Counted from the whole stretch's first letter, positions 1 through 43,849 are shown. The stretch: DNA of 54,835 nucleotides, filler included, from Sphacelaria rigidula (GCA_964200075.2; 5 parts of 5 records of this genome joined end to end with filler, not necessarily neighbours in it); one strand, 5' to 3'. Made by a program: numbers and translations. Notes: generated by a model from the sequence alone, not told the origin.

Positions 1-65
1 AGCCATCGTTTTCTCCCTACTGTCTGATGCATCAAACGATTTCATGCCAACTTTGTTCACGTCTC
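1..65 (-). mobile_element. LINE fragment, same family as 32964-33836
   Basis: Reverse complement contains TTTGATGCATCAGACAGTAGGGAGAAAACGATGGCT, matching 33591-33626 (TTTGATGCGTTAGACAGTAGGGAGAAAACGATGGCT). Confidence 0.8.
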
Positions 66-3000
66 GCAGGGGGAGATAGTGCGTTACCATCCCCTGATCG
101 GGGAAATGGCGGATTTCTGGACCCTGCCGCAGAACCCCGTCCTTGCTGCCGGCGAGAAGATGGCGAATCAGCTGTTCTTTCTCCGAAACGTTGAAATTCT
201 TGCGTTTCTGCCCCTGAGAGGCACTCCCAGCAGTGGACATGTCCCACCAGCAGATGGGAAGGCGTTTGACCAGGGCTTCAAAGTTGGGGTGGTGAAAGCG
301 GGCGTCGTCTGCTGCGGTGGAACCCACTTTTTCCGTAACCCTTAAAAAAGACAACGGTTCTGCGCGCTGCGTGCCAGCGCGGCGGAACCAAAAGAAAAAA
401 GCGTTCCGAAAAATAGTTCTGTAGACCCGAGATAGACCGCATTTTGTCCAAACCTTGCTTTTTTTACCGGTCAGAGGGAGTATATGATTTGTCGTTCAAG
501 GTGAAGGGGTGATAGCTCATCGGGTACTTGTAGTCTCAACAGACTGTACAGTACAACAGTACAGTGCAATACTGTAGAGTTCAGTGCTATCAGTCAAGCA
601 GCGCAAGCAGCGTTTCCCCCCTTACCCACCCAGGGAGGAAACAGTATTATTCGCGACGTAGTTGGAACGGGGAAAGTATTATCTGCGCATTCGACCCCAA
701 AAGTCTACTGCACAGGTGTTTCTATAGCTTGCGGTGTAGCGGTGTGTTTCAGGAACGTCCTACGAACGGGGTGGAATCATCTCCAGGTGGTGGTCCAAGT
801 GGTGAAATAATCTCCACTTCGTAGCCTGAAATCCATGGTTGACACATTTTCGAAATAACGCCAACGCAAACCTAAACCCCAACCACGATCAAGTCATACC
901 GAAAACCCTCGGGCACGGGGGGTGCAGAAGGTGTCGAGAGTGACCTAGCAAAATGTGAGTTGGCATACCTCAAATCGGCGCCTGTGGCGCCGGTTTGAAC
1001 AAAATGCGTTCTCCGGACGCGAGGAGCAAGAGAGACTGTTGTCAGTCAATCCAATTAAAGATTCAATCTCGGATGTCGGACTCAAATCAGTACAGTCGTA
1101 TGTCTAAGCCATGGATTTGGAGCTACGAACCGGGGTTGAAAACTACAGCCGTCGTCACCCGTCTCGCCTGTCCTCATTAGTAGTACTGACAGTGGAGTGC
1201 AACACAGTTCAGAAAAATGGACCAGCGCTTGTCACGCATAAGCCATGTGGCGCACAATTATCATCTTCAAGTGCATCTTACGATCGTGGGTGTGCCATAG
1301 TAGGATGGTTGGCTCAGCTCGTATGTCGTGTGATCAGACGCACGGTGTAAAAAAACAGAAGAATACATTCGTGAAAACCGGGGCGACCGTATTTATTATT
1401 AATACTTCGGTGGGGCGATGACGAACTCCTTCACGACTTCGCCCACAACGATACATGCTTACAACAGTAGTCGACCATCTGAGGATCACTGCATATTGAC
1501 ATCTGAGTCTGAGACTCATTTTTCAACTGAACATGATGCCGATTCAGCAGATGGACACCCCCGGGCGTTTAAGGGGTCAACTGTTTCGTGCCACAGGCAT
1601 CTCCAACTTAGGCCGTGTCTTACATAAAAAAATCGACCCGAAAACATGCGGTCGATTCGAACTGGTCGTTACGAGGCCGAATCAGATACGTCCACGGCAT
1701 TTATGTTCCTAGATGGCTTCGAGTCCATTTTATAAATAGTTGCGCGCGACGGGCAGGGTCGAAAACAGAAAAGCTTATCTTTTTCGAGCGAAACGAGCGG
1801 CGGAATGAACGTAGCGGCACGTAACTCCCATGTTGCAGACAACCGTGCCAGATACTACCCTTTCACAGAGGTACGCAAAACCCAAATGGTTCATTCCTGC
1901 GGCACAGATCACGAACTGAGCGCAGGCATACATACACTGCAGTGAGCGATAGAAACCGACATCACTACTGTTTTGGCATGATGCATTTCTTCTTGTTGGC
2001 GAAAACTCAGGCATCTAATTTTGTGGCAGGTCCACCGACGGAGTTGCGTGTCGGGGTGGGCGATCGAATTGCCAACGCGCTCATGGACAGTAGAGGCGGT
2101 GAAAAACTGCACATGGTTCAAATCTGCTTCGCATCCTCCTGTGTGCAGAGAGTCAGAAAGTTGTGCTGTCTGTCAAATCTGCTGTATGTCGCGTTGCCCG
2201 CTTCTTTTCCACCTCGCGGCTGCAAGCTGCGCGAAACACACACCACGTGGACAACAGTACAGTACAGGCCGCCACTTTTGTACAGTCTGTACTGACTCCT
2301 TTGTTCTGGTCGATTTACTAATATAAGTAGAGGAGTACCGCTTCACGAATTTCGCTTCGCTTTTTCGATTCAAAGCGTGCAAATTCGCTTGGACACAAAC
2401 ACAGGAAATCGAAGTGAGTCAATTCCGCCGCACGAACTCGTTCGAATCGGGAAAAAGTTGGTGAGACACCGCCTTATTCCTTTTTCGCCAATAATCCGGG
2501 AAACATGCGCCTATACACAGAATTCAAGATGGAAACGCATGTCAGGGCGCACAAAGCCGTAAGGAGGTGGATTCCGTGTCGCACAATGAATAACGTAGGG
2601 TACCAACTGCACAGGGCACTACAGGACAGTGGTCGGTGCAGCAGTACAAGCTGCTGGGGATAGGACTTGAAAAAATCCGAGCCATCGCAGAATCAAGAGC
2701 TCTGGGATATGTGATATCTGGATGTGAAACGGAGGTTCGTTTCAACAAGTATCCGAAGTCGCACGCACACAGCAACCATGACATGCCTCTCCAAAAATCT
2801 AATAGATGGTCTGCTGCGTAGTACGAGTATGGATTTTTTCCACTTTACTTGAAATACGCCAGGTTGTCGGGGCAGGTGTAAAGTGATTTTGTAATGTGCT
2901 GTCTACTACTGTCTGTCCGTTGTATTCGTGTTGACCGCCCTGTCCTTGAGGATCGTCTTCTCAACCAAACAGAGCACTGCATGTAGAACCGACCGTATTC

Positions 3001-3285
3001 TGGATTGGAACACGCCCCCATGAGAGACGCACGAACCTCACAAGACCCATCAACAGGGACAACAAATTCGAGTAAGGCGATTGTCTGTACTGTGCTGTGC
3101 TACAATGTAGACAAGCTCCTCCAACAAGCACTGCGCATCTGCTTCCCAGTCAACACCGTACCATCTGTGCTGCGTGCAACGGGTACCGTCCTGCTTCGCG
3201 ATGTGCGCACCACTTCCCACACAAAAACAACGAAAAACTTGTACTGTACGAGAAAGTTCACAATACTTACAGAGCGTGAACTTAC

Positions 3286-3367
3286 CAAGTTCCGTGGATT
3301 GAGTCGTACTGGAGCAGGTAGCCCGCCGTCTCCGCGCCTCCCACAATCTCATTCACAAGGACGATCT
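3286..3367 (-). CDS. GAPDH: Glyceraldehyde-3-phosphate dehydrogenase, exon 2
   Basis: CAG acceptor at 3370-3368 with an ACTGAC branch-like motif upstream. The phase-1 join gives (E)IVLVNEIVGGAETAGYLLQYDSIHGT(W), then donor GTAAGT at 3285. Phases are consistent with exon 1; intron is 446 nt. Confidence 0.93.
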
Positions 3368-3813
3368 CTGCTCAGCCAGCGAGGCACGTGTCAGTTGCGC
3401 CGAGCAGCATTGGTGGGGTGACGGTACTCTCCTGTCTGAGCGGAGTATTATAAGTAATCTCTGTACTATATATACTGTTTGTACTATACTGCGTACACAT
3501 GTTGCGATCGCAAGTGGTCACGAAACCGAAACGGTGCTGAACTGAACTGGATTGGACTACTGTGCTAACCACCGAACACCGAAGATTGCAAAGTGAGAAA
3601 TACACAAGGTTGCAGATGCATGAAAGGGCTGGACTGGTGCCTTCGAGCCTCCAGTCAGTTGGGTTGGTTGCGGTAAAAACCTTCGGTAATGTTGAGAGGG
3701 AAGGTTTCGGCACGCCACCTACAGCAGATTCGCTTGGGTTTAGTATCCAGGATTTGTAAGTAGCGGAGATCAGGAGATTGTTTCTGGTACATCATCGAAA
3801 ACATGACACTTAC

Positions 3814-3892
3814 CAACGTCCGGCATCTCCCACAGAAACCGGAACAGGCATCGCCCTATCCGCCCAAAGCCGTTGATCGCGACCTTCACCAT
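3814..3892 (-). CDS. GAPDH: Glyceraldehyde-3-phosphate dehydrogenase, exon 1 (Gap3/ArsJ-associated-like)
   Basis: Minus strand reads ATG(3892) MVKVAINGFGRIGRCLFRFLWEMPDV plus G, then donor GTAAGT at 3813. INGFGRIGR is the GAPDH Rossmann-fold signature. Too short for the ORF track. Confidence 0.95.
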
Positions 3893-5465
3893 GCTTCTTC
3901 GCAGCTGTGCTATAGGGCCGAAAAAGGACGGTTAATCAAAAGCTGTTGTGATGGACTGATTGTTATAATACCGTCTGTATCGTGCCTGTCCTGAAAGGTC
4001 GTGTGCGAACCTTTATCTGAACCAGTATTCACATGGTTTTGCCGAACATTTGAACTGTGGTCATTCCAATCATCTTGATTTTAGACTGTGGTCGAATTTG
4101 CCCGCTGTGACCCTCTTTACTTGGTTTTAAACTACCCCGGCACCCGATATCCAACTAGGGTCCCGTTTTCTTGTCATTTTCTACGGATCTAAAATAAGAT
4201 CTTGGGAGCTGCTGGTTATTGCAGCTGGTTGGAATAAAATGAAGAACGTTTTCACAATGATGATCGCATTAAGTCCATGACAAATGACAATCAACTGAGT
4301 GCGGTCGGTATATCCTTGTTGTACTTGCCCATCCATGAACGCGATGGTTTGCACCCGGTTGACTTCTGGTGATTTGGTCGACCACACGAGCAAGCATTCG
4401 TGCGAGTGACGTTGTTCATCTTTGCGTACAAGGTCAAGGTTTGGCAGGACGCAATTTCATCTGTTATAATGTACAACCCTGCACCCCGGGTCATGATACT
4501 CCTAGTCGCTACAAGCAAAAGTACTTGTGCTACTGTGGCGATATAGTATGTGATTCGGCCTCTTGGCAACCTTTGATGGAATGCGTGCCGTATGATCGGA
4601 GACGGCACACGACAGGAGGTACCAGCAATGCCAGATATGTGTGGATCCCTTTCATGTCGTCACAAAATCCTGATTGTGTGGGCAAGGATATAGATGGCTC
4701 TTTGCATTTGCTGCTACCTGAAAATTCACGCAGTACTAGTAGTGATGATGTGGGTTGTGCACCACCCATCTGCACATCATATTCATGTCTCCGCCTTGCG
4801 TACGCCCAGCTGCTGCGTACTGTCGACGATAAATACTCCGAGTCACGACATGTTGTACTTCTATAAAATCTGATACGGTCTGCCATCTACCATCAATGAA
4901 ACGTGCTAAAAGTATATTCTACGGCCACTATTCCGTTATGTTTCTATCGAATTTGAGCGTTTACCTCGGCTTTGCGCGCGAACGCACTCATGATGATTCA
5001 GTAACAAACGCGCCGAACGTCGAAACTGGGCGAAAAATGATTAATGCAAATGCGCGCTTGCTTTTCCTGCTCTTCATACCGAACAAGGGATAAGTCGGCA
5101 GCATATAATATTGTAGGTCCAATTTTTTCACTGTCGGCTACACAACGAATTACTATCCAGATACCTAAACGCCAAAGCAATATAATTCGAAAGCTTGTAG
5201 AACAAACTGGATATATATGCTGAGACGAGATGATCGTCTACCCTCACACGCGAGACACTCCCGCCGACTGGAAACATTCACAAGGCATCCGCGGTACTCT
5301 TTCGCTCCCTTTCTGACGTCTGCACACGAGATACCGCTAAAATATTAACTGCAACGTGCAAACACTGTTGTAGAAACGCCGGACTTCGCGGGTGATTCTG
5401 CTTGCCCGCTCTCTCCGCTCTTCGTTTGAGGGCGCTGGGGCGGCCACTGGTGCAGCAGCAGCCGT

Positions 5466-5549
5466 CCGTAGCAGATATAGATACAAACGGTTCGGCAGAA
5501 ACGTCGACCGTAGCAGACACAGATACAGACGGTTTGGCAAAAACGTCGA
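5466..5549 (+). repeat. 42-bp tandem duplication (2 copies)
   Basis: CCGTAGCAGATATAGATACAAACGGTTCGGCAGAAACGTCGA followed by CCGTAGCAGACACAGATACAGACGGTTTGGCAAAAACGTCGA. Confidence 0.85.
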
Positions 5550-5739
5550 CCGCAGACTCTGCGCTACCGCCTTCCACAAAGCCGAAAGTCTAAAGGCGGC
5601 TCATGTTGCAGACCGGTGTGGTTCGCAGCAAGTGGCAGTGTGGCGTGTGGAATGTAGTGGGTGGCGGGGTGGTGGGCAGTGGGGCCATGGGCGGTGGCAC
5701 GATATGCTGTCTACCCCCCCCGTAAAATAAATAAATAAA

Positions 5740-5885
5740 TATATCGACCACATCAATGTCCGATATTGATATTGACTTTGATACGTATCGACAAGTATTG
5801 GCTTGGGAAGCGGCGATACCGATACGCCGTATCGACCGATATTATCGAAATCCTATCGAGTATCGATATCCGATTTTCAACACTG
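5740..5885. mobile_element. Terminus of an hAT-like DNA transposon (one end only)
   Basis: Dense ATCGA/CGATA subterminal repeats ending in CAACACTG (CAGTGTTG terminus). Partner end and TSD not found. Confidence 0.5.
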
Positions 5886-6161
5886 TTTTGAGGTTGTTGA
5901 CGTTTGAAACGGTATTCAGCCATCACGGCAATGCACGGTAAAATTTGGATGATAACCGTCACTCTGGTGCTCGTCGGTGGAGGAACCAGCCACTGTGTGG
6001 AGATTATCTTTGAAAACGAACAGACTGTATCCATCAGGGTTAAGGTTAGATCACTCGTCAGGAGAAGGGCGACGTGTGATATATTGTGTGATATGTTATA
6101 CGTCACGCTTTCGCTGCCAAACTTCGTCATTCACCCCTTTGGACCGATTTAACGGGTTTAA

Positions 6162-6259
6162 CCCTTAGACCGCGAGATTATTCTTTCTGGATCATGCATA
6201 CCTTTTTTCACTTGAATTTGATGCCGATTCAACAGAGGAATAACCTCGCGGTCTAAGGG
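6162..6259. mobile_element. 98-bp piggyBac-type MITE
   Basis: TTAA|CCCTTAGACCGCGAG...CTCGCGGTCTAAGGG|TTAA: 15-bp perfect TIR with TTAA TSD. Second copy at 47480-47577. Confidence 0.9.
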
Positions 6260-6944
6260 TTAAACCATTTTGGGGTGAACCGGTCTGACCGCAAAAAGCA
6301 CTCCGTTTTTTCAGAAACGGAACATGTAAACCCCCGACGAGGGATTCCAAGAACCGACTATAACCCGTTCATTTTTCAGAGGTGCACACCTCTGTCCATG
6401 AAGCATGCCAGAGGGATTTGAATGCTTCAAACCGTGCGTCTGAGTCCGACTAGCGTTTGCCAACAAAGCCCCGGTACGAGGCGTTAGGAGATGAATGAGA
6501 AACAGGCATTTCCATCGTCCCGTTGGTATGCATAACATGTCATGTCCTAAACTGCACCGACGATCATCTGATTTGTACGTCATGTCTGCTAGATGCTGTA
6601 CTACTGTAATACGATACTAGGAGCTGGGCCAGCCAAGACATTCCTTCGGCACACGACTACTTCAAACTTCCTCAGTTTCCTGGATCAGCACGATGGAAGT
6701 ATATCGCTGTGAACTGCTGACCAACCCGCTGATGCACGCTCTGGCGCGAAAATATTGTAATAAATATGATCATATACTCAATAAAAAATGACCTCAACGA
6801 CAGAATCAGGTTCAGGGCAATCCGTGCTCTACTGCTCGGTGTGTTGGCCGTGGTGCATGGAAAACAAAAAACGCTCATTGTCGGAAGGTCAAGCTGCAGC
6901 ACAGTACCTCCTCATAACGGGGGCCATCTTCGACGTCGATCCTC

Positions 6945-7287
6945 GACACTCTCTACGATAGCCCCCCCAGAAAAAAGTGGCTGGTTTGGGGAGGCAGAAT
7001 TTACACGTGAATCGAAATGGGAAAAGTCTAACAGTGAGCAGCTGGGAATTCCCAAGCTTGGGTTCGTTGTCGCCAATGTCGCCCTCAAGAGGCGCTTCAT
7101 GCAGCCTGAACCAAACATCAGGTGCTGCACGATCATTTTCATCATGGCAGTTTTGGGCTGGTTTTGGGGGCGGGGGGCGTACTCATATGTTGCTTGCCTT
7201 AGTCATTTGACCATTGACCACGCATCCCTTTCGAGACGGAGCACGGTTTCACGGTTTGGGGGGGGGAGGGGTATCGTAAAAATTATC
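6945..7287. mobile_element. MITE with GACACT(T/C)..TACGATAGCCCC-type TIRs, interrupted by a LINE 3' fragment
   Basis: Left end GACACTCTCTACGATAGCCCCCCC; right end GGGGTATCGTAAAAATTATC. Left half matches 10999-11127 in inverted orientation. Flanks CCTC/CTTC may be a 4-bp TSD. Confidence 0.6.
7170..7252 (-). mobile_element. 5'-truncated LINE 3' end
   Basis: Reverse complement matches 33760-33836 (GTGCTCCGTCTCGA.AGGGATGC.TGGTCAATGGTCAAA.GACTAAGGCAA.CAACA.ATGAGTACGCCCCCC). Confidence 0.85.
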
Positions 7288-8781
7288 CTTCCTTTTTACT
7301 TCAACCTACCACGCCGCTAGAGTTCCGGTAAAGGCGGCACAGTTTGGAGGACAAAGGACTGCCAATTTCGAGCTGATAAAACAAACGCGAGGACGTCGGA
7401 GCTTCACACTCATCGTAGCATTCCCTGTACACTTCGCTCCTGATGGATATGATGTTAACCACACGTGGCTCAGGTGGCAGAAGCATACTGCACCTTGAAT
7501 CATGCGATCATCAGCCGTCCGCGAAGAAAAGTACTTTATACCGTACTGTACTACCAATCGGGTCTGTCGCTTTCACCCATGGAAGAAAAAATACGTCGTT
7601 CCACCTAAACACGTGGGTACCGTCCTCTGCTATTGATTAATCCGTACAATTCGTACAAAAATGCACCCAAGTCACCATAGTATCTTCCCCACGTGCACCC
7701 AACACATGTAATACATGTGACAACGCGTCCACTTTGTGATTCTACATGCACACACAGGCGATGTTGATATGGTGAAGTTGGATAGCCATGACAACCAACT
7801 CTCTTCGGTTTCACTCAGTGTTCTCATAATGGTAAGTACGACCAACTACAATCGCCATCAAACTGTCTAACACACAACGCACCATCAAACACACCAACAA
7901 CTGTCCGATTCGACACAACAACACCACGTACCATCACTGTAATCTGACAGCATAAAAAGGAAGCAAACGAAATTACCCTGAAAAGAGTAGGCAAAATACA
8001 CATCAATGCAATCACGTTTTTTACAAATATTCAACTGCTTGTTACTGCAAATGCTGCTGCTGCTGCTGCTTCCCTCCGTGTTTGAATAAATCGCTGGTAT
8101 GCTAGGCCCGGTTTCGCTAATCAACACCCCAACCTAACAAAGCAGCGCAAGCACTGCACCCACCGAATGCATTTCCTCCGCTCTTGTCCACCCCGCAAAC
8201 ACCCGTACAGCAGTCACCATTACGACGCCTGGCCTCCGAAGCGCTTGCTGCACTCAGAAGGACTGTACAGCAGCGGGTGCCACGTAAAACATCATCGTGC
8301 CGCGCCGTACTGAAATACGTTTCGGGTCCAACTCTCTCAAATAACGGATACACTGGCGGTAGACGGGTGTGTCAATGAACTAGCCGTCGATGCATGCACT
8401 CTCGCAACGAGTCAACTTCCATCACGATTCGCAAGCAAATCACAGCAACAATCAAGGTACTGTACGAAGAAGATGGTGTAACCGTAAAAGCCAAAGCCAG
8501 CGGCACCGATGTACGTACAGTATTGGACACAAACTCCGGGTCGGATTCCACCTCACCACAGTCGCATTTCAATGTTTCGCAATAATTCCCGCTCTTAATC
8601 ACAGCCCTTTGCGTCTTCCACACATCCGAATCCCACGAATAATACGGTCATCTCCCGAACAGTGAAACGTCAACCTAGTCAAAACGCTGAAACTGAAACC
8701 GTTCAGCTACAATCAAAAACAAGCCGTCGCACACCCACAATACCCCAAACCACCGTCTATCCGAAAAAGTACGTCAGTTAT

Positions 8782-10644
8782 CTATCGCCGATGGTTGTGA
8801 TTCGTTTTGCTGTCACCCGCCGTCGACGCCGCCGCCGCCGATACCCTGTTACTCTTGCGCAGCGCAGACGCCAGCCCGGATGCCGCATCGATCATCGCCT
8901 GACGAGGGGGAACCCACGGCAGACGTCCCGAGCCCACACTCGTACGAGGGACGGCACCGGCGGTAGTTACGCCTCCTCTCCGGCTAAGGGTGGCAGAGCC
9001 GACAGAGCCGGCACACGGCACACGGTGCTCCTCGGAGGTTGCCCTGCTGGTGCTACCGTTCGCAGCGGTCTCCGTCGCTGTCGTGGTAGTGGGGGACGCA
9101 CCGGCGCCCATCACCGTTGTTCTCGTTTTTTTGGTCATGACACTTACATCTGCGCTTTTTTTGGTCGTCACGCTGCGGCGACTACTGGAGGGCGAACGGT
9201 GTTGGGAAGGATGGCGGTGTAACGAATTGCCAGCATCGTTAGAGGCACCACCTACACCTACGCCCGGCAGTCGGTGCGGCGGCGTCACAGCTCTCAAACT
9301 CGCCAGCAACTCCCCCTCGTCGCGAAGCGCAGGGGTGTTAGACGACGCCGAGGCATCAGAGTCTTGTAAACGGGCCAAGTCTGCTGCGGCGTTGCTGATA
9401 CTGCTGTTGTGGATGCGCTCCTGCCCGTTGTCGGCTACCTTGGCAAAACCCTCGGAACCACCCACCTGCAGGTGCGGCGGCGGTGGCGGTGTCGAGAGCT
9501 CCGAAGGCCGAGCCCCCGGTTGATCAGACCAGGCGCCGACAACTCCACCACGAGGTGAACCGTTACCATTCACGCCGCTGCCACTTCCGCTGCCGTAGGA
9601 GCGATAAGGTGAGCGGGTGGCACTGCTCCCGCCGTCGCCGCCACCACGGCCACCCCCGTCGTTGAGCTGCTGTCGGCGGTCGTAGTAGCGCGCGCCATCT
9701 CCTCTTACACTGCTTGAGAACCCCGGCAGTCGCGGAATGCCCCTCGTCTCCCCGCTGTGATGGGCCATCGCCTCTAGTGGTGTCATCATCTTTCCCCGCA
9801 GGGACGACGGCGACATGGGCGACACCGCCGCCTTGCGGTTCATCCCCGCGCGCGGCGACGTTGGCTGTCCACTGATCGCGCTCCCGTCGAACGACGACAT
9901 ACCCGAAGTCTGCGTTCGATGGCGTTGGAACGGGTGGCTGTGAGCACTACCAGGCGTCACTGCCGCCGCGCCGGTACCTCGCACGCCAGCATCAGCTCCG
10001 ATGCCAGCTCGGTCATGTGTTCCTACCCCGTGAACCCTAGCGCCATTTTGCGGGGAAGCTGACGGTGCCGCCTCTGGCGTGTGTGTATTTTGAGAGTCCG
10101 GTGACGTATTTCGGAAGTTCGATGACGTGTTTCGGGAGGTCGCGAGACCGACCAGAGCGCGCAGAGCCTCCTCCTGCTCCATGTCGAAGCCCCCGCCAGG
10201 CGAATTCGGAGCAGAAGGAGAAGGCGCGGGTAGATCTGACAGAGGGCTGTCGTCGCCATCGCCGTTCCGAGTGCGCTCCAGCTGGCACTGCGCCCACATC
10301 TTGCGAGCACGCCTGTAGGCCCGCTGTTCGGGTGTCATAGCTCCCGAGTCCGCCGCGAAAACTAAACTATTTTCCGCCCCCGTTGCCTCCTTTGTCCAGT
10401 CCGGAATGTTCCCTGCGATATCGTCAACCCCGCTCACCTCCGCCGATGGCCTCATCACTCCCGACCCTCCCCCGCCCGTCCGCACGCCAACCTTCCCTGC
10501 CACGGCGGATGGGTACGTCTTCCGCCTGAAACTGACAGGGTCTGACTGCGGGCGATTTCGATTCCGTTCGGCAGTCCGCTCTTCCCTCGTCGTCGAACGC
10601 TTACCAGGCAACCCTCCACCGTCACCGTAGTACACGAAGTCAGA
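8782..10644 (-). CDS. Large terminal exon of an unknown low-complexity (G/S/A/R/P-rich) protein
   Basis: About 620 uninterrupted GC-rich codons. C/T-rich tract and TTAG acceptor at 10646-10645, in frame with the ORF; TAG stop at 8782. Upstream exons lie beyond the contig end. No domain recognised. Confidence 0.75.
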   Translation of the reverse strand, partial: SDFVYYGDGGGLPGKRSTTREERTAERNRNRPQSDPVSFRRKTYPSAVAGKVGVRTGGGGSGVMRPSAEVSGVDDIAGNIPDWTKEATGAENSLVFAADSGAMTPEQRAYRRARKMWAQCQLERTRNGDGDDSPLSDLPAPSPSAPNSPGGGFDMEQEEALRALVGLATSRNTSSNFRNTSPDSQNTHTPEAAPSASPQNGARVHGVGTHDRAGIGADAGVRGTGAAAVTPGSAHSHPFQRHRTQTSGMSSFDGSAISGQPTSPRAGMNRKAAVSPMSPSSLRGKMMTPLEAMAHHSGETRGIPRLPGFSSSVRGDGARYYDRRQQLNDGGGRGGGDGGSSATRSPYRSYGSGSGSGVNGNGSPRGGVVGAWSDQPGARPSELSTPPPPPHLQVGGSEGFAKVADNGQERIHNSSISNAAADLARLQDSDASASSNTPALRDEGELLASLRAVTPPHRLPGVGVGGASNDAGNSLHRHPSQHRSPSSSRRSVTTKKSADVSVMTKKTRTTVMGAGASPTTTTATETAANGSTSRATSEEHRVPCAGSVGSATLSRRGGVTTAGAVPRTSVGSGRLPWVPPRQAMIDAASGLASALRKSNRVSAAAASTAGDSKTNHNHRR

Positions 10645-10889
10645 CTAATGTCGAAACAGGGATGAGCAAGGAGGGGGTGGGGGTGGGGGTGGGGTGCTAT
10701 GACAAGCGAGCAGGTGCGCGAGAGCACGTTGACCACCAAAGGGTCGAGATACGTGGTAAGTGCACGGAGGCATGAAGAGCAAAAGCCCATGGACCCCACC
10801 CCCCCCCCCCCCCCCCCCCCCCGCCCACCCAGAACAAAGGACACGAGAAAGAAAACGAGACGGGAGCGAACACGAACCCACAGCCGAGA

Positions 10890-10989
10890 NNNNNNNNNNN
10901 NNNNNNNNNNNNNNNNNNNNNNNNNNNNNNNNNTTAATTAATTAANNNNNNNNNNNNNNNNNNNNNNNNNNNNNNNNNNNNNNNNNNNN
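10890..10989. other. Artificial contig linker
   Basis: N run, TTAATTAATTAA (stops in all six frames), N run; 100 bp total. Confidence 0.98.
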
Positions 10990-10998
10990 CCGATCTGC

Positions 10999-11127
10999 TA
11001 GAACGAACCCAAACGTGGGAAATCCCAGCTGCTCGTTGTGCTGGGCTTTTCCCATCTCGTTTTACGTGAAGGTTTTGCCTCCCAAAACCATGAACTTTGG
11101 GGGGGGGGGGCTATCGTAAAAAGTGTC
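10999..11127. mobile_element. Partial copy of the 6945-7287 MITE, truncated at the contig start
   Basis: Inverted match to 6945-7075; ends GGGGCTATCGTAAAAAGTGTC. Confidence 0.7.
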
Positions 11128-11129
11128 AG

Positions 11130-13290
11130 TCAAGTAACAGCAGGTCGCAGTGCCCCGAGTCAGTGCTGCCGCTGCGGCAGACCTCTCGAAGGCCGACACA
11201 GCGGGAGCGCGGCCACAGGAGCCGCGCCGAATGAAGGGTATTTCGTACCTGAAGGGCTTCTGAGACTTCTCGCAGTAGCAGCGACATCAGGCACGCGCGT
11301 GGCTATGGCCGAATATATCATCGCCGCGAGGTAGAGTCAAATCCACCACCGCAGCCGATGCTTTGGCAAGTCCAACCTCTCCTGCGCGCCGCTCACCGCT
11401 ACAAGTCCTCCGACACTTTTTCGAAAGAGAAGCGACCGTCCCTGCCACGTACTTCACGCCCATGATCGGCGTCGATCACGACAGTGATGGCAATGGTGCC
11501 GACTTTCCACGTGCTGCGGCGTACGCGGGGGCAACATTTTTGGAAGGCGAGTTCGTGAGTGGGTGCCCTCCTGCGCAGGGGGAGAGGGGTTTGCCAGGTG
11601 GCCCACTAGCCGACGCCGGTTCCAGTGAGAGGTTGTGCGACCTCAAATTTGCCGACGCTTCTTCCGGACGCATCCGCCGCTGCAATACGAAAACGGTGGT
11701 GGCCAAGACCTCGACAGGATCAGTCCTGGGATTCTGGTCCGGGGTGGTAGCCAAGACAGGGCTCTGGCCGCCGCCCCTTGTGGTGATCGCGCGGATACCC
11801 TTGTGGAGGCACAACCAGTTTTGGCGTTGTGATGGAACACATCACCCCACCGCTTGCCGTCGCTACAACCGACGGCACCGATAAAGAAGAAAAACGGGCG
11901 CTGCGACAGGAAATTGGGGACAACTCTACGGCAGAACCTGACGACCGTGACTCGACTACTGCCTTCGGCGACAGGGCGATTGTCGGATCGATGTAGCCCG
12001 TCATGGTGAGCAGCATGGTGATGGTAGCTACGGGATCGACACATCTACCACAAACGGTGTCGCCACCTTTCTCAGAGCTTGCCCTCATCCAGTCCCTCGC
12101 ACCCATCGCCGGGGGATAATGGCGCATAACTCCATACTGGACCTCATCCACAAAGCGGTTTCGGGTGGGAGGGCTTCGCTCGTGTCGATAGCAGGTGGGG
12201 GCTTCGCCAATACTGCAGCAAAGACTTCAGAGTTAGCAACAGCGGCGGCGGCGGCGACATCAGTGGAGACAATAGCTGGTATGCCCGCGTTGGAATCGAG
12301 GATCGTCATCGGTTTGGCAGCGGGGAGGAGTGAGGGTGGGGGTTCAGGGAGGTGATAATGATCTCCTCACCCCGGACGGCATGGTGTTTGGCGCCGCCCC
12401 CGCCTGCATGGCGGAAAGTCATCATGGCGATGAGACGGGCGGCGTCGAGCGGGGGCTGGAGTCTATGTCCATAAGGGGAGTACGATCGACTGTCCCGTCA
12501 GCGAACACACGATTCATGGCATACCCGTCGCATGGATTGCCGAGTGTCGTGACCGCCACCTCGGAACGGCATCGACGGGCTCGAGTCTGCCGACGCCGAG
12601 AGCTCGGGCGTCACGCCAGTCGTCGAGGCCGCATGTAAGGCGGGGTCGATGGTGACGGGTATCGACAGTCCTCCCCCGGGAGTAAGCCTTCAGCTTTCGC
12701 TGCTCTTCAACGCCGTCTCGATGAAAATTACGTCGGGTAGTAGCATCAAAATTGAAGGCATCGGGTGCGCTTTTGATCTCGAGGCGTACAGCACTGTGAG
12801 ATTCATCCCTCACCTCGACATGGGGATGGGTGATGCCGTTGGCGTCGTTGCCGTACATGCACCCCGCACCGCGATCGGCTTGGCGTCAGATGCATGTTCT
12901 GCATATCACGCGCCGCCGCGGGCGTCCGTCGATACCCCCGTTGCTGCCTTAGTAGCCCCCTAGCAGCGTCCCGGTGGGATTTTGAGAACAATCATGCGCG
13001 GCGACGTGTATCGCCGCAATCTAGGGGCTAGGGTGCACACCAGAAATCGATGGTGGTTGCCACGCGCGAGCAACACCACCAGAACTCCACCCGACGGTGT
13101 CAGGCAGCCGGTTCATTCGGCTGCCGACCACGCTGCTGACGAGGAGTCGGGGCCGGGACCACCTAGGAAGCGATGGTGGTTTTCACTCGTGAGGCATTTG
13201 ATGGTCGCCGCGGCGGCGGTAGGGCCTGGGCAGGGGCACCGAGAAAACATCGACAGCAACGCACAGTCAGCTGAGCTATGCGAATCGATC
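11130..13290 (-). pseudogene. Decayed GC-rich coding-like sequence of unknown identity
   Basis: Chain of overlapping minus-strand ORFs with S/P/T/A-rich translations (e.g. 12085-12309 continuing by frameshift into 11720-12151), broken by stops. No domain recognised. Confidence 0.3.
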
Positions 13291-13642
13291 CAAAAATATG
13301 AAGGTAAAAAAAAACGTGTCCAAGCTCTTCCTGATGGAAAGATCAAGCTAACCAGTCAGACACAGAGGATCCGTCCGGTCGATCGTACGAGATTCGCAGA
13401 AGCGCAGAAGAAGGCCTTCCGAGTACCTTTGCTCCGTGAGCTCTTTCGAGCCAAAATAGTCTTTTCGCCCGAAAGAGCGTACTGAGGGTTTCGTTTGTTG
13501 TATCGGTTTCATTTTCAATATTTTTTCAGGCGAAAATGATGCTGATTCCAGATGTGGACATCCAAGCGGATACTTTCTACGATAGCCACCCCCCAAAACC
13601 AGCTCAAAAGTGTCACGAAAAAAATGGCCATACAGCGCCACA

Positions 13643-13923
13643 CAGAGGATTCTATAAAATGAGGTTCATCAATGAAATGAGGTTCGAGCCCGAAACAGTA
13701 CTTTCTCCACGCTTTCAGCGATGGTGCCCAATGACTTTTTTGTCGGCCTAATGCCCCTCAATCGCGTAGATACTTTTTCAGCGCATTTTACCGACTCTGT
13801 GAGCTTACAGCGCTGACCGAACTGTTGTTTTCCCTGATATCACCCCCCCCCCCTAAAAAATAAGGTACTGTTTTGAGCTCGAACCTCATTTCATTGATGA
13901 ACCTCATTTTATAGAATCCTCTA
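13643..13923. mobile_element. MITE with about 58-bp TIRs (CAG/TAG ends, hAT-like), no TSD
   Basis: AGAGGATTCTATAAAATGAGGTTCATCAATGAAATGAGGTTCGAGC.. occurs inverted at both ends, with an internal AAATGAGGTTC doublet. Flanks are not duplicated. Confidence 0.85.
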
Positions 13924-15138
13924 ATGTTTCGAAAATTCCGACTGGGTTGACGGTTGGTAGACTCCTCTCCACAAAGCTCTGCACCGCGCCATCAATCGCC
14001 GCTCGCTCCCCAAACTGCTGCTGCTTTGACACAAGTCCTTGATGGTTTCATGGCCGCTATGGATGCCGACCGCGCCTCGGGGAAGTCAGGCCCGGATTTA
14101 CTCCGTGATCTGGAGCGCCGCATGACCGGCTACTTTGATCGCAGCACTCAAGGGAGTGCTATCCAACGACTCAGTTTTTTTGGTGTCGCAACAGATGTCC
14201 CCTTCGCGGACTACCTCCGAGAATTGAAGCTTCTCGTTTCCAGTAGCATGGAAGTAGGTCGCCAGACTGGCCCATCAGACGCAATGTGTCAATCATATGT
14301 GAGGAATAGTGTTTCCGAGCAGTTCCCGACACTAATGCCGTCGCTGTTTCCAGGTACTTTAGCCCACCGCAAAGTGCTTTATCCCTCTGTGGATGCGATG
14401 TGGAGCGCGTTTGTCCATCAAGAAAATAATTTGACGCCAGCCATTCGCGGCGACAAGTATGCTTCAGCTCGTTCCCAGTCTGCTTTTGCACCTTCTTCGA
14501 CCCCTTCCGGGTCCCGTCATCGGTCTCACACTTCGCTTCGATCCTCGTGGGTGCCCGCCTCCGTGGCCGGCTCCGTTATGAGCGTTGCAAACAAGGGAGA
14601 TCTGTTCAGCGCCAGCTTCGACGGATGGCCGTACTCCGCTGAGACTTAGGATGATGTTTACACTGTTTTTACCTCTGCGTTTACTACCGATGACCCACAT
14701 CTGTGGAACCCCCTCCTCTCGTCTGCTGCCAGACACGAGGCTTTCAGCCGCCACGCAAATAGTTGCATAAATTGCAACACCCGAGGGCACAGTATGCGCG
14801 ATTGTACTTGCCCTTGTATCAACTGTTTCGACCTCATGAACTCTGAGCTGCAGGACAATGAGCCACCAGCATGGCTCCGATGACAGAAACGCATGCGTGA
14901 ATACCGCACACCCAACCGTCATTCTTGCCGCCCTTTCAACAACCGCGACAACACTCGCTCAAATCGTGACAGTCGCCCCAACAACTACGACAACTCTGGC
15001 TCTCAGCGAAGAGAGAGTTCTTCTCACCGTCACCGGAATTCCGCCGATAGACACCAGCGCACGGGGCCGAATTACAATCACTCGAACCCCAACGCCAGAA
15101 ACCCTGGTTCTTGTATGACTGATCGTACCGATCGATGA
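13924..15138 (+). pseudogene. Ty3/Gypsy gag (5'-truncated) with CCHC zinc knuckle
   Basis: ORF 13954-14649 continues past an in-frame TAG into CINCNTRGHSMRDC (14764-14805) and then an R/N-rich tail. Homologous to 43545-43800 (LTQVLDG..MD.DRA.GK.GP.LL.DLERR..GYFD). Confidence 0.8.
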
Positions 15139-15922
15139 CATGCCGACGCCGGCGTTTTTACGTCTTCTGCGCCGCCGACAGCACACACGAAGACTACTTC
15201 AACACCAACCGCGGAACGAGTGACCAAACTTTCTCGCTCAGCCTCTCCGGCACTATGCAGGAGTTCTAATGACGGCCGCTCATATCGACCCCCGTCCTAA
15301 CCTCTTCGCACACAGCGTGACAGTTGCGTGGCTCACAACTTAGCCCTACCCTCGGCTCTAGACTTGGTCCTCCGGAGCTGAGCGTAAGTCTGAGGTATGG
15401 GAACACCAACCGCCCGTCTCTGAGGCAAAGGGCTCCCTCAGCAACCGCACGCACAGGCAGTAGTGTAATTCACTCGACTGGTTCAGGTATCGCTAGTCAG
15501 AATTTGACCGCTTCGGACCAGGTAACACCCACCCCGGTCGAACGAGTTCATTCTTCGCGTTCATTGCACCATGCGAAGCTACCCCTGAATGGTTACCACA
15601 TAAACCATCCTACTATACCTTCGATTATGACTCCTCAGCCAAGCCTGCCAGTGGGCAGTCCACAAGCTTCGCCCGAGCATGCCCCGATGCTGACCCCATC
15701 CACTGAACTGGACGCAGTCGGGTTTTCCCCATACATATTGGAAGTTCCCCGCCCTTTGTCACGGCGAGAGAGGAAGCCCCGTGAACATGCTCCCACTGAA
15801 GCGCGCGCATTACAAGTACACCTCCCTCGAGTGGAAAATCTCGTCCTCACTCTCTCCAAAATGCGACGACTTTGAGCTCGATGAGTTTATCAAGTGTCCG
15901 AGAAAAATCCAAATAAGATATT

Positions 15923-18900
15923 TTGGATATTCCTACCTCTTCTGCGGACTACACTGAACAAGACGGATCTACTTTAGACGTTGATCCCTTCCTTCCTAAC
16001 ACGGTCATATATGAAATTGCTTATGACCAGCCGAGCTGTGCTCACTCTGGGGACTACACATCATCCACCAAACTTTCTGGTGAGAAAATTGACCCCCCGG
16101 CGGATCACCCGCCCTCCATTTTCGCCGTCAGCACTACTGATTCCGATCAACTTACCTTGGCTGAAGACTGTCCGGATCTTATCGGCGGTAAAGTGTCTGT
16201 TGACCCTGCCACTTTTACTACTCGCGTAGCGCTCCATTGTAGACCATACGCAACCACGACTGCCAAATGCATCTCTTTGTTAGACAGCGGCAGCCCACAA
16301 ACATTTATTCGTGAATCAATGTGGGAACATATGAAACAGATTGGCGCTGCTTCAGCAGCTTGCGAAATCACCACTAAACCTCGACTATGGGGCGGTTTTG
16401 GTGACTCCACCGCACCTTTGACCACACGAATATCAGTTCGTCTCAGTGTGCAATTATTTCACAACACAACTCGTTCTGCCAGCCTTGCAGTCTGGGCATA
16501 TGTTGTCCTCGACAGCACCATGGCTCACGCCTTACTCATGGGCCGAGATAGCTACATGCGGTTTGATCAACGCACCTACCGCACACTACTACCATTATCG
16601 CCACAGTCTGCGTCTCGTGGAGAACTCAACCTTGAACATTTCGGTACTCTTCACGGCGCCTTGGCCTATCAAAAAAATGAACAAGCTACCGGAGCTGCCT
16701 ACCACCTCCGATACGATGGTACTGCTGGTGTGACCCTCTCCGATGATCCTCAACTGCTAGAAGTTGCCTTAGGTCGCCGAAATGGCATGCCTGCCCTTAC
16801 GGGACATTACTTCGCTGAAATGCTTCCTCGGGTTGGTGCGCCTGCCGGCACAGAACACTTTGTCTCCGCAGGAAAACAACTTTTTCCACTCACGGGACAC
16901 GCTAACTTGGAACCCGGAGATGTTTTGGGTATTGCTGCTGCTCCCCTCATGCACATTACACTTGAGACATGTGCCACTGAACCTTCTATGCCCAACTCGG
17001 CGCCTCCGACAGACGCTTCTGTCAATTGCGTCGATGGGCCTTACTTCGACGTAACCTCTTCGTCTCCATCACGTATCCACATCGTGGACCCTGCACCGTC
17101 AACGTCCGATCCTCCTGCTGAAGTGCTACAACACCTGTCTTCAGAATCTCGGACAAGTTTCTTGCACATGTGGGATCAACTTCCATCCCATTTACGTGAC
17201 ATCAACTTTGACCTACATGGACCCGGTTGGGAGCCCGCTGTAATCAAAGAATTGAGCGATGTTTTATTGGAGTACCAAGACAGATTTTCTCGATCCAAAA
17301 CGGATCTGGGGCATTGCAAAACGCTGCCCTTTGAAATCAGCCTTCAACCTGGCGTTTCGCCAATCTCTTCTCGACCGTATCGGACGAACCCCATCCTTAC
17401 CAAAAACGTTAACGCCATTTTAGATGCGTACTTGGGTGCCGGATTAATCCAACACTCCTCTTCTCCGTGGGCCTCACCGCTAGTGGTAGTCCCCCAAAAG
17501 GATGGAAACATACGCATCACCGTGAATTATCAACGGCTAAATCGCGTCACTGTAGTGGGAAAACTTCCCATTCCTCGCATAGATGAAGTGTTCGACTTTC
17601 TAGGCGAAGGCAAAATATTCAGTACCTTCGACCTCGCTTCTGGATTTTTCCAGAACGCCATCCACCCTGATACAGTCCCACCGACAACGTTCTGTACATC
17701 TTCTGGACTCCACGAATGGCTCCGTATGCTACAAGGTGCCGCCACTGCACCAGGTTGTTTTCAACGCTTAATGCAACGCGTTACAGAGAATCTCGAACAC
17801 GTCATCATGTACTTGGACGACGCTATCGCATTCGATGCCTCCTCTCTTGCGCATGTGCGCACCTTACGAGAGTTTCTTTCTCGCCTGCGGAAGCACGATT
17901 TGAAACTGTCTCCATCCAAAGCTCGCCTTGGCGCGACTGAACTGGATTTTCTGGGACACTCAATTTCACCGGCGGGTCTACACCCCGAAACCAACAAAGT
18001 CAGAGCAATGGCTGAATTGCCGATGCCCACGAACATTACTCAGCTCCGCTCATTGTTGGGTGGACTGTCCTACTATCGCAATTTTTTGCCTAACCTGTCC
18101 AAACGGATTCGCCCCATTACGGACTTGCTTGAAAAAGGCGCCGCGTTTGTCTTCACCAAAGATATAAAAGCTATCGTGCGCGACTTGCTAAAAACACTCA
18201 CCGAAAAATCGGTCCTTTGTTTCCCGGACTGGGATGCCGTACAAGACGGCTTCCGCCTCTTTCAACTACATACAAACGCGAGCCGACGGGCTCGGCGCGG
18301 TCCTGAATCAGCCTCAACTCGATGGCTCTATTCGACCCATCCTCTATATCAGTCGCGCCACCCTTCCAAACGAGGCCGACTGGAGTCCACTGGAGCTGAA
18401 AGGCGGAGTCATCACTTGAGTGATGCTACGGTAGGGGTCCGGAAATAATTTCTGAGGTTAGAATTGTTAGGAGCACCTCATCTCATCCAAAACACGACTT
18501 ATGAAAATTTGCGAGAGTACGCCAGGATTACTACTCCAATGTGCTGGGGATATGCCGAATAAATCTGCAAACGGGGATGCCCTTGCCCATATTCTTGTGC
18601 GTCTAGAATCGTTAGGAGCCCGTGAACCAGACAAAATTTCGCGAAAAAAGTGCACCCCTACCGTAGCATTGCTCACTTGGGCCATAAAGCGCCTTCGACA
18701 ATATTTGTTCCATGTGCCTTTCCAAATCTACATGGATCACGGAGCACTTGAACAACTCGCCAAAGTTGGCGAACATAACCCGCGCGTGCAACGCTGGTTG
18801 GAGTTCCTGACAGCTTATCAGTATACTGTCAAACACCGCCCTGGCGAAACCAACGGGAATGCTGACCTTCTCTCCCGCCTGCCCCTTCCTCCAACGGCTG

Positions 18901-21692
18901 TGGATTTCAGCCCCGCTTGTCGACTAACTGAACCCGATGAACCCGGCGTGTATCCTATCCGGCGTTTCTTAACGCCCATCTACGCCCTTGACCTTCATTG
19001 CCCAGAGACGGGTATGCACATGGGCGGCCCCCGCCCCCTACCGTATGATGCAGTCTTGAATGGGCTACAACCCACCGACGCCGATTTCGCCGATTTCCGT
19101 ACTATCGGTCCTCGCGCAAATATTGCAGTTTCGCCACCTCCAGTTGTCCATCTCATTTCCGACAACACGCACTCTCGGTCTGCCGTCCGCGCTAACCCTC
19201 CCCGTACCCCACCGCCACCGTCAACGCCTACTGCTCCTGCAAGCAGCGTAGCGCCGGCTCCCCGCAACACCGCACCACGAGCCTTGACAACCCTCGCCAC
19301 GCGCAATTCTCACAACAAGCGCCGAGCGCGATCTCCGGCGCGCACTACTGCGACATCGCCGTCCGCCGCGGCCCCGCCAGTACCCAACCCTTCTGATGCT
19401 TCCGATGCTCACATCGACGCTGGCACCTCCCCCCCGTCGCCTGTTCCACCGCTTCCTGAGCCACCATGTCTGATCGGCTCTCCGGCGGACGGACAACTAC
19501 GCGAATTTCTCGCCAGTTACTCCCATCGTGATTGGGCTCGTGAACAACACGCAGAACCATTATGCCGTGCAACCATGCGGTACCTCCGTGCTGGCTGCCC
19601 TGCTCCTATCCCGACTAATGTATTGGCCCCGACTGGCACACTGCCACCACCAAACGCCGCCGAGATGTACGAACTCGCACGCAAAGATACTATCTTCACG
19701 ACTGATGACGGAATCGAATTGCTTGTCCGCCGCCCTACGCTCCAGCGGGGTGTGACTTCACCCGCGCTCACTGGACGTCATGCACGACTACTCGACGATG
19801 AACCCACACGGGTATATGTTCCATTTCGGATGCGACCGTGGGTAATGAAAGGCTGCCACACTGACCTGTCTTGCCACCTTGGTGTCACGCGCACATTAGC
19901 GTTACCCGAACGTATTTACTGGTGGATCGGTATGGAAGTGTCCACCCGCTTCTGGATTCGGCGCTGCTTCAAGTGTCATGCACGCAAAACCTCACGACAG
20001 ACTATACGTTGGCCAGTTATTTCAATGGTACTTCCCAACGCTCCTGGTCACCTCGTGTATTTCGCCTATTTCGGCCCTTTACCGCCCACTGACCGTGGCA
20101 ACACCTACATCTTACTCTTTACCGACCGTTTCAGCCATCACGCAGCCATGTACGCAGTCACCGCTGGAGACTTCACAGCAGCGGGCACAGCTAATATCTT
20201 AGTTTATGTTTCATGACTACAGTATATCGAGTACTATGGTTGCCCGAAACGGCTTCTCGCCGACAATGGTCAGCAATTTTGCTCCGATCTCTCGGACGAA
20301 CTGTATACGCTCCTGGGCATTCGAAAGATAGCCACGAGCGCTTATCACCCTAATGGTAACGGTGGCACTAAAAGAGTTTACCACACCATGGCCCAGATGC
20401 TGTCTATGGTAGTTAACGATCGACAAAACGATTGGGATCTCCATCTCTCACATGTCATGCTGTCTTATAACAACTCGGTCAACGCTGCTTCCGGCCTTTC
20501 CCCGAACGAGTTACATCTCGGCCGCTACTCCCGCCTGCCCATCACAGTGTTCGAGAGACACACCTTTGATGGCCACCAAGGCTTGGATCAGGATCAGATA
20601 CCCTACCATGACCTGGCGCGTGCACGCCAGCGCAAAGCTTTCACTCTCGTGCGTGAACAACCCGCTATCAACGCCTCGCGTCTTGAGAGATCTAATAATG
20701 CTCTCTATCATCTGATGCACAAACGACCTACTTGGAAGGTTGGCGAATGGGTCTGGGTTTACAACAGTTTGTCAACCATTCGCCAAGGCGCCGACAAAGC
20801 TGCCAACGAGATAGTCTTGAAGACGAAGCTATCCCTCAACTGGATAGGACCATTCAAGACTCTGACCGTAGGGCCCTCGCCATCATCACCTGATGGCGAA
20901 CCTGTTGGGGACAAACTGCTTTATCTCGATCTTCCTCGCGATCTCCAAGGACATGACGCCAAATCTCGCTCCTCTGTGCACCGTTGTAAGGCTTGCATCA
21001 ATCCGCATGACAGTAGAGACATGCCCAAATATCTGCCTGCCGGTCTTACGCAGTACGTTCTTAACAGCTATTGGACCAAGCCACCGCCTTACCACGTTAC
21101 TACCGAAGATGTGACGGAACAATCCCTTCGTCTCGCCGTCTCCCACATTTCTGGACACCAGATCACCCGCGGTCGAAGCGGTAAAATTGCTGCCATGTAC
21201 AAAACTCACCGGCAAGGCCTTCGGAGAGCGTCTTGGGAACGCGAATCTGACCTCCAGCTGCACCGCCGAGCTATTCTCCTGTACTGGACACAACCTCAGC
21301 AGCAACATCATGCTAACAACAAGAAATATCGCAACATACGCCGCGGCACAGCACCACGCGAACTTCACCGTGACAAAGGTTTACGCTTTGTCGCCGATGG
21401 CTATGAGTTGGTAGCCACCCAGCATTGGAAAGAAAAGATCCGCACAAAACAGAAAACCCTCCCCGAAGGCGTCTACCTCTGGTACAAAGGCAGCGACAAC
21501 CTCTAGTGGCTAGGCCAGACCCACTCCACAGACCTCATCGCACCTGACACATACATTGTGCGCTTCATCGATGACCCCGGACCCGTGCAGCTCAAGCTCC
21601 GCCCAGAGCTCTATACCACCAGTCCATCCGCACCACGAGGGTCTTGGTGTCCTCAGCGACTCAAATCCAAAGGCCCCCGCCGCGGAATCTAA
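15923..21692 (+). mobile_element. Ty3/Gypsy pol pseudogene: protease-RT-RNase H-integrase-chromodomain-extra domain
   Basis: Protease LLDSGS; RT SPWASP/DLASGF/YLDD; RNase H (T)NAS..GLGAVL/ELKGG/DHGAL; integrase CH..CHLG..YWW..CFKC, FGP, DRFS, DNGQQF, AYHPNGNG; chromo-like ISGHQ..YKTH..SWERESDL. Frameshifts near 18285 and 20210, stop at 21504, MITE insertion at 18418. Confidence 0.95.
18418..18674. mobile_element. 257-bp Sola2-like MITE inserted in the Gypsy RNase H
   Basis: ACTT|GAGTGATGCTACGGTAGGGG...CCCCTACCGTAGCATTGCTC|ACTT. Removing it restores GGVITWAIKR. Confidence 0.9.
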
Positions 21693-21876
21693 CATAATAT
21701 CCATCGCACACATGATGTTAACGCACCGCTTTAAGCTCCCACAGACCTTCTGTTTTCCGATCGACGAGATTTTTCCTTTCTCTTTTATTTTTCCTCCCCT
21801 GTCGGCGTCGCTTGGCGATGACGCTGTAAAACACGCCACTCACCACGTAAGCTAGGCAACCAGGTTACCGCTTTTT

Positions 21877-21976
21877 NNNNNNNNNNNNNNNNNNNNNNNN
21901 NNNNNNNNNNNNNNNNNNNNTTAATTAATTAANNNNNNNNNNNNNNNNNNNNNNNNNNNNNNNNNNNNNNNNNNNN
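21877..21976. other. Artificial contig linker
   Basis: N/TTAATTAATTAA/N, 100 bp. Confidence 0.98.
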
Positions 21977-22215
21977 GTGGAGAACGATTATGTCGTGGGT
22001 ACACAAAATTCGACCTAACGGTCGACGAGGGAAAGGGACTGCTGAACCCCTGTCCCGATAAAAAAAAAGGCAAGCACCGCAGAAGGAAGGTAGAGTACTA
22101 AAAAAAAAACTCCTGTGTTGACCTTTCTTCTGTGTGACATGATCCTTGCTGGTGCGCCCACATATACCGAAAGGTATAGACTGGCGCCCAGAATAGATGA
22201 GACGACAACACACAC
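21977..22215 (+). mobile_element. SINE body, truncated at the contig start
   Basis: Matches 22430-22668 (GTCGACGAGGGAA.GGGACTGCTGAA..; GGCTGGTGCGCCCA..; CAGAATAGATG.GACGACA.CACA). Confidence 0.8.
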
Positions 22216-22255
22216 TATGTAGGAAATTGGAGGATGATTTTGTACCTATCGCAAT

Positions 22256-22942: not shown

Positions 22943-22944
<2 letters not shown>

Positions 22945-22992
<48 letters not shown>
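22945..22992 (+). repeat. (AAT)16 microsatellite, possibly a retroelement tail
   Basis: Perfect AAT run following a G-rich tract. Confidence 0.95.
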
Positions 22993-22993
<1 letters not shown>

Positions 22994-43800: not shown

Positions 43801-43849
43801 ATAGCCTCTGCCAGGCGATCTGGACAAGAGGGCTATTCAGTGAGGGACT

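Follow-up and report, generated by a model that had tools for sequence, protein, structure and literature searches.

The minus-strand segment between positions 3286 and 4003 of a 54,835-nucleotide stretch of DNA from Sphacelaria rigidula (GCA_964200075.2; this whole stretch, five parts of the genome joined end to end with filler, is called the window here) raises two questions: whether a brown alga has a working GAPDH gene of the kind found in bacterial arsenic operons and, if it does, what the enzyme is for. Brown seaweeds are rich in arsenic, which matters to food and feed safety, and their genes for arsenate handling are little described. In our view, the best explanation of the data is that the segment belongs to a transcribed gene of the ArsJ-associated GAPDH clade, serving arsenate detoxification together with an unlinked ArsJ-like exporter. 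We give this statement, taken as a whole, a probability of roughly 0.55.

The identity and structure of the gene are close to certain. The segment is almost surely the 5' end (i.e., 5' untranslated region, exon 1, intron 1, exon 2, and the first part of a long intron 2) of a nuclear GAPDH gene of a brown alga, which is intact and transcribed and belongs to the ArsJ-associated clade. All of these features lie on the minus strand. The coding part of exon 1 (3892..3814; 79 nt, i.e., 26 codons plus 1 base) contains the ATG start codon (3892-3890) and the Rossmann GxGxxG strand-helix. It is followed by intron 1 (3813..3368; 446 nt, GTAAGT...CAG, phase 1) and by exon 2 (3367..3286; 82 nt, i.e., 27 codons plus 2 bases), which encodes the N-E-I-V-G-G loop and the D-S-I-H-G-T-W end. 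Intron 2 opens with a GTAAGT donor at 3285-3280 and takes up all of 3285..1, which gives it a length of >3.28 kb (i.e., more than 3,285 bases); its acceptor and the later exons lie outside the window. The two exons together amount to 53 codons plus TG, and the window carries only the first 54 codons of the gene. The 5' untranslated part of exon 1 extends over at least 3893..4003, where the longest of the transcript contigs described below (X1; 1,819 nt) is colinear with the genome on 3814-4003 with 0 other letters; the contigs of the other three runs (X2 to X4) reach only 3917-3949 on this side. A stop at 3934-3932 shuts the ATG frame upstream. Since the frame is closed and the transcript is colinear with the genome, no N-terminal extension or targeting peptide is encoded, and for this reason the protein is probably cytosolic, as predicted from the sequence. 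The full product is a type I GAPDH of about 340 residues.

Each exon matches the Pfam family Gp_dh_N on its own (exon 1, E = 1.1e-7, profile positions 1-24; exon 2, E = 2.6e-4, profile positions 26-52). The exons are therefore consecutive and in order, and a two-exon GAPDH match of this kind is far beyond chance. In tblastn searches of the window, full-length orthologues from Ectocarpus (P0007), Tribonema (P0008), and Nemacystus decipiens (P0138) all matched exon 1. The Ectocarpus protein was 93% identical to exon 2 and 80% identical across 30 residues beginning 4 codons 5' of the ATG; its identity to the joined peptide is 94% over 53 residues. The same three orthologues revealed no further GAPDH pieces in the window, exons 1 and 2 being the only ones. 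A preliminary description of this DNA had proposed two phase-compatible GT-AG exons, and the sequence, the Pfam matches, and the spliced contigs confirm them, with the right coordinates and the right peptide; its exon edges at intron 1 were one base off the canonical GT/AG cut, a shift that leaves the mRNA unchanged.

Evidence for expression comes from four runs of one study (X1 to X4), which were used as contigs only and whose type is guessed as RNA. None of the runs found to carry this sequence is on record as RNA. Of the words in 3200-4100, X1 to X4 contain just 13 to 24%, against the full set in other runs from the same coded organism. When the four runs were compared with positions 1-4400, each gave one contig of 1,442 to 1,819 nt with a word depth of 84 to 131. 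The contigs of all four cover exon 1 and join 3814 to 3367, leaving out 446 bases (CT..AC on the plus strand) with 0 other letters, and those of X1 and X3 are listed on exon 2 (3285-3367). Past 3285, the contigs of all four runs continue for at least 255 letters that resemble nothing in the window, and the total run-on beyond exon 2 comes to 1,300 to 1,546 nt. Read on the gene strand, its first 30 letters complete the split TGG (Trp) codon, just as had been supposed from the TG at the end of exon 2, and then encode D-K-E-V-D-F-E-D-A-K; the Scytosiphon and Nemacystus orthologues have E-R-D/E-V-E/D-F-E-D-A at the start of exon 3. This 30-letter start of exon 3 has 0 matches across the window at up to 3 mismatches. 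Exon 3 of the gene is thereby known as its first 10 codons only, the catalytic part lying outside the window, and contigs of this length are long enough for a full mRNA. The gene is live (i.e., transcribed and spliced), with the run type guessed as RNA.

These contigs also bear on whether the two exons could be the remains of a dead gene whose GAPDH body has disappeared or been moved away by inserted transposons. The window holds exons 1 and 2 alone, repeat-like sequence is present in the 3.28 kb after exon 2, and an LTR retrotransposon is present at 15.9-21.5 kb, all of which would suit such a history. However, the contigs of four runs splice exactly, continue well beyond exon 2, and enter exon 3 with orthologue-like codons; moreover, both exons are open, and their joined peptide is the one that so closely matches the Ectocarpus protein. 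A dead fragment is therefore very unlikely, and this explanation is close to refuted.

As for the kind of GAPDH encoded, exon 2 alone has as its best NCBIfam family NF033735, the ArsJ-associated GAPDH (cut-off, 450 bits), with 23.8 bits versus 14.1 bits for generic GAPDH-I, while exon 1 alone does not discriminate (19.0 bits on NF033735; up to 24.7 bits on generic models). Full-length relatives from Ectocarpus and Tribonema were obtained by a search with the 53-aa open frame around exon 1 as the query. NF033735 ranked first, ahead of all other GAPDH models, for the proteins of Ectocarpus (493.2 bits), Tribonema (482.6 bits), Ascophyllum (P0148; 486.9 bits), Phaeodactylum (P0066; 486.7 bits), and Guillardia (P0092; 484.3 bits). 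The GAPDH of Chrysoparadoxa (P0011) reached 423.4 bits, below the cut-off, its match to the profile ending at position 299 of 323. On PRK15425, a GapA/GapC-type model with a cut-off of 662 bits, the Ectocarpus protein scored 259 bits, and the six proteins together ranged from 252 to 277 bits. Judged by its full-length orthologues, the gene belongs to the ArsJ-associated clade.

When one genome from each prokaryotic species was scanned, the 80 closest loci, which were kept, connected this clade with arsenic operons. The bacterial GAPDHs at these loci are 57 to 63% identical to the Ectocarpus protein, and an ArsJ match lies directly downstream of the GAPDH gene in 77 of the 80; among the three loci without arsJ, one (L044) is only 1,825 bases long. 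On NF033734, whose cut-off is 400 bits, two of the bacterial ArsJ proteins reached 630 and 585 bits, and one locus (L005) has acr3 and arsH upstream as well. One Leptolyngbyaceae genome (G001, to which L004 belongs too) was observed to carry two ArsJ-type GAPDH copies (L092 and L095).

We then placed the algal proteins in a tree of 48 rows, comprising 15 algal rows (i.e., 4 brown algae, Tribonema, Chrysoparadoxa, 5 diatoms, 1 haptophyte, and 3 cryptophyte rows), 22 rows from the bacterial loci, 1 additional copy from a cyanobacterium, and 10 further GAPDH paralogues encoded in five of those bacterial genomes. The 38 rows of the first three groups (23 ArsJ-type bacterial and 15 algal) stand apart from the 10 other paralogues with a support of 100/99, and the 15 algal rows form one clade (support, 100/100) inside the ArsJ-linked bacterial clade. 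No single bacterial donor or sister of the algal clade was singled out among the 48 rows (fork, 82/82, drawn open). The family scores and the tree, in which the window's gene is represented by its orthologues, both uphold the earlier assignment to the ArsJ-associated clade and not to GapC, GapC1, or GapA.

The motifs that the preliminary description had named turned out to be real signatures of this clade. The W that ends H-G-x-W is found in all 23 ArsJ-type bacterial rows, in 13 of the 15 algal rows, and in none of the 10 other paralogues; the extra loop residue occurs in 23/23, 10/15, and 1/10, respectively. The window's own exons show W-x-x-P after helix 1, the one-residue-longer N-E-x-x-G-G loop, and H-G-x-W. 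Farther along the protein, the Ser in S-T-G-S-A-T-A (S-T-G-A-A-K in others) is shared by all 15 algal and all 23 ArsJ-type bacterial rows and by none of the 10 other paralogues. S and T replace A and K near the phosphate-binding S-T-G-A-A-K in 15/15 algal rows, 21 to 23 of the 23 ArsJ-linked rows, and 0 to 1 of the 10 other paralogues. The catalytic Cys and His are present in all 48 rows. The algal clade alone has 3 to 4 extra residues before K-D-L-R-R, which are absent in all 23 bacterial rows.

The degree of identity to the bacterial ars-operon GAPDHs might be taken to mean that a bacterial contaminant, or a very recent transfer from bacteria, has been misread as an algal gene. However, both introns of the gene are of the spliceosomal type and open with GTAAGT, one of them being confirmed by the spliced contigs, and the position of intron 1 is common to six unannotated contigs of other organisms (P0001 to P0006), whose read-through frames lose their GAPDH likeness at that point. 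Algal proteins are also closer than any bacterial one (i.e., 64 to 82% identity), and they form a fully supported clade with an insertion of its own. The introns, the spliced contigs, the shared intron position, and the algal clade refute contamination or very recent transfer, to which we assign practically no probability.

The gene is a spliced nuclear GAPDH of a brown alga, and the nearest proteins are those of Ectocarpus, Scytosiphon, Cladosiphon, and Ascophyllum. Its orthologues also occur in diatoms, a haptophyte, cryptophytes, Tribonema, and Chrysoparadoxa, all in one eukaryotic clade, and the gene is neither peculiar to brown algae nor newly acquired from bacteria. Nor is it "hidden," as had been claimed, since models of orthologues have already been deposited for many brown algae: the 90% cluster around the Ectocarpus protein comprises those from several Ectocarpus species, Scytosiphon, Pylaiella, Laminaria, Hapterophycus, Cladosiphon, and Nemacystus, and a deposited Ascophyllum orthologue exists too. 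The Ectocarpus siliculosus entry (CBN75386.1) was deposited as "conserved unknown protein," and UniRef names it GAPDH; the products of Scytosiphon, Cladosiphon, Ascophyllum, Pylaiella, and Laminaria are unnamed. The window holds the same gene as these records, as the joined 54-residue peptide is 87 to 94% identical to them and the exon 1/exon 2 junction fits the protein; the deposited records are without a functional note on ArsJ or arsenic. We found no literature linking ArsJ or an ars-type GAPDH with brown algae or diatoms, although supplements (e.g., the arsJ tree of PMC9812998) may show stramenopile members, and the main text of a preprint on 60 brown-alga genomes has 0 mentions of arsenic or GAPDH. 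The extension of the ars-type GAPDH to red-plastid algae thus seems unremarked in the literature text searched.

So wide a distribution would also suit an enzyme with no dedicated arsenic role, namely, a GAPDH isoenzyme of bacterial ancestry that does ordinary glycolytic or gluconeogenic work in the cytosol of brown and other red-plastid algae. Many members of the clade come from transcriptome collections (mmetsp and eukprot), suggesting routine expression; the contigs of X1 to X4 reach their depth in runs with no known arsenate treatment; and the catalytic residues are all standard. On the other hand, the S and T near the phosphate-binding site are common to the algae and the ArsJ-linked bacteria and all but missing from the other paralogues, and stramenopiles already have GapC-type cytosolic enzymes. 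We consider an ordinary isoenzyme possible, if somewhat doubtful.

The gene neighborhood by which the bacterial and green-algal systems are defined was searched for in the window as well. No ArsJ was found in the 54.8 kb by tblastn, either with two bacterial ArsJ proteins (best E value, 1.9) or with 61 family representatives that include the eukaryotic clade described below (none at E <= 0.01), in accord with the earlier remark that no arsJ was seen there. Among 90 open frames of at least 75 aa in bases 1-15954, a scan that could miss short exons, Pfam detected no PGK or MFS (MFS_1) domain. The GAPDH gene is without an arsJ neighbor on the one side visible in the window, which ends 3.3 kb into intron 2. 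The Nemacystus model is a fusion of 2,198 aa in which the GAPDH is flanked by an unknown protein of 738 residues and by an RWP-RK protein, not by ArsJ; it probably represents three merged neighboring genes. A synteny search found none of the Nemacystus neighbor genes in the window. The lack of an arsJ or PGK neighbor, both here and in the fused model, favors the ordinary isoenzyme.

The remainder of the window was surveyed for other features. At its edge, positions 1-147 have a summed contig depth of 19,000 to 38,000 in X1 to X4, with pieces on 1-68 that show 6 other letters and then become unlike the window; a sequence that is abundant or present in very many copies thus lies there. What looks like a dispersed repeat at 1471-2499, inside intron 2, is matched by many short contigs of 90 to 95% likeness with joints that skip or go back. 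No Rfam families were detected in 1-6000, and the open frame at 1-495 (minus strand) had no Pfam match. The retrotransposon mentioned above is of the Ty3/gypsy type, its pol region at 15917-21503 (plus strand) consisting of three long open frames in a row that encode reverse transcriptase, RNase H, and integrase zinc-binding domains. A 620-codon open frame without a Pfam family lies at 8785-10644 (minus strand) in a G+C-rich stretch (0.58 to 0.59), and other long open frames without a Pfam family lie at 40714-43902 (plus strand).

A partner for the GAPDH was sought among eukaryotic proteins by searching 50% representatives with a cyanobacterial ArsJ query, which yielded 61 full-length hits. 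Of these, 29 form an ArsJ-like clade with a support of 100 in a quick tree; they are 36 to 47% identical to the query, and most have 40 to 100 extra N-terminal residues relative to bacterial ArsJ. We looked up 10 of the 29 clusters. Three have organism names (i.e., Chrysoparadoxa australica, a pedinophyte green alga, and the dictyostelid Synstelium), and six have none (four are nameless and two bear a JGI function label only). NF033734 is the only family matched by the Chrysoparadoxa, pedinophyte, and Synstelium proteins, at 371, 410, and 393 bits, respectively, against the cut-off of 400. The clade, which includes P0336, P0337, and P0358, thus brings together a green alga, an ochrophyte, and a dictyostelid, the presence of a non-photosynthetic amoeba being unexpected.

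Chrysoparadoxa australica, a relative of the brown algae, has both an ArsJ-like protein (P0358) and a GAPDH of the clade (P0011), and this co-occurrence argues against an ordinary isoenzyme; the two proteins score 371 and 423 bits, both under the respective bacterial cut-offs of 400 and 450. For the brown algae themselves, no ArsJ appeared among the named proteins in the 120 listed of 541 matches or among the named members of 10 clusters looked up, these named proteins all being bacterial; the Atlas clusters were likewise bacterial only, and no brown alga was named among the 10 looked-up rows of the 29 in the ArsJ-like clade.

Every phosphorylating GAPDH carries out arsenolysis, and clade membership alone is therefore no proof of a dedicated arsenate role. 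We see even chances that the enzyme has such a role with an unlinked ArsJ-like exporter. In that event, the enzyme would use arsenate instead of phosphate on glyceraldehyde 3-phosphate, as in Pseudomonas, and an ArsJ-like MFS transporter with its gene elsewhere in the genome would dispose of the unstable 1-arseno-3-phosphoglycerate. This would protect a marine alga into which arsenate enters via the phosphate transporters.

The N-terminal extensions of the ArsJ-like proteins invite a further, more speculative idea, which we think improbable. Brown algae, diatoms, haptophytes, and cryptophytes might keep an unlinked GAPDH3/ArsJ pair in which ArsJ sits on an internal membrane and arsenic is stored in a vacuole-like compartment, not expelled. 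The extension of 40 to 100 residues would place the transporter on that membrane and not at the cell surface, and 1-arseno-3-phosphoglycerate would be pumped into the compartment and fall apart there. If this were true, the pair would help to make brown seaweeds as rich in arsenic as they are, or would supply their arsenosugars.

Detoxification by export, which we prefer, can be set beside three kinds of known enzyme. The first comprises the GapC, plastid GapC1, and TPI-GapC3 proteins of stramenopiles. The Sphacelaria gene shares with them the type I GAPDH fold and the catalytic Cys and His; however, its orthologues fall far below the PRK15425 cut-off, and it has no TPI part and no presequence before the ATG. 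The Phaeodactylum orthologue (P0066) may be the published GapC4, which one passage calls mitochondrial, giving no accession.

The second is the arsenic operon of Pseudomonas aeruginosa, whose GAPDH forms 1-arseno-3-phosphoglycerate for export by ArsJ (Chen, Yoshinaga, Garbinski, and Rosen 2016, as cited in PMC7826186). The algal protein belongs to the same clade by HMM, tree, and signatures, and the same chemistry is presumed. Unlike the bacterial gene, the algal gene is nuclear, intron bearing, and monocistronic, with no arsJ, arsR, acr3, or arsH beside it in the window, and its clade has the insertion before K-D-L-R-R; its function in stramenopiles is one that we infer.

The third is the system of green algae, where ArsJ, a bacterial-type GAPDH3, and an unusual PGK (PGK3/PGK4A) are encoded by neighboring genes (Foflonker and Blaby-Haas 2020/21, PMC7826186) and where arsJ and pgk3 mutants of Chlamydomonas are arsenate sensitive (PMC7826186). 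A eukaryotic GAPDH/ArsJ pathway is therefore not new in itself. The main text of that article has 0 occurrences of stramenopiles, diatoms, or brown algae. In a passage of another article, Cyanidiales have arsJ alone, grouping with other eukaryotes (PMC9812998). The Sphacelaria gene, too, is eukaryotic and intron containing and encodes a bacterial-type GAPDH distinct from GapC and GapA/B, and the ArsJ-like transporters of the pedinophyte and Chrysoparadoxa fall into one clade. It is probably the same kind of gene as the green-algal GAPDH3. The green-algal genes adjoin, whereas no ArsJ or PGK neighbor was found here in the window. The gene widens the range of a published system and brings no new kind of mechanism. 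A single ars-type GAPDH clade in brown algae, diatoms, haptophytes, and cryptophytes would carry the pathway described in 2020 for green algae over to the main primary producers of the sea, with a named, testable candidate gene in the model alga Ectocarpus.
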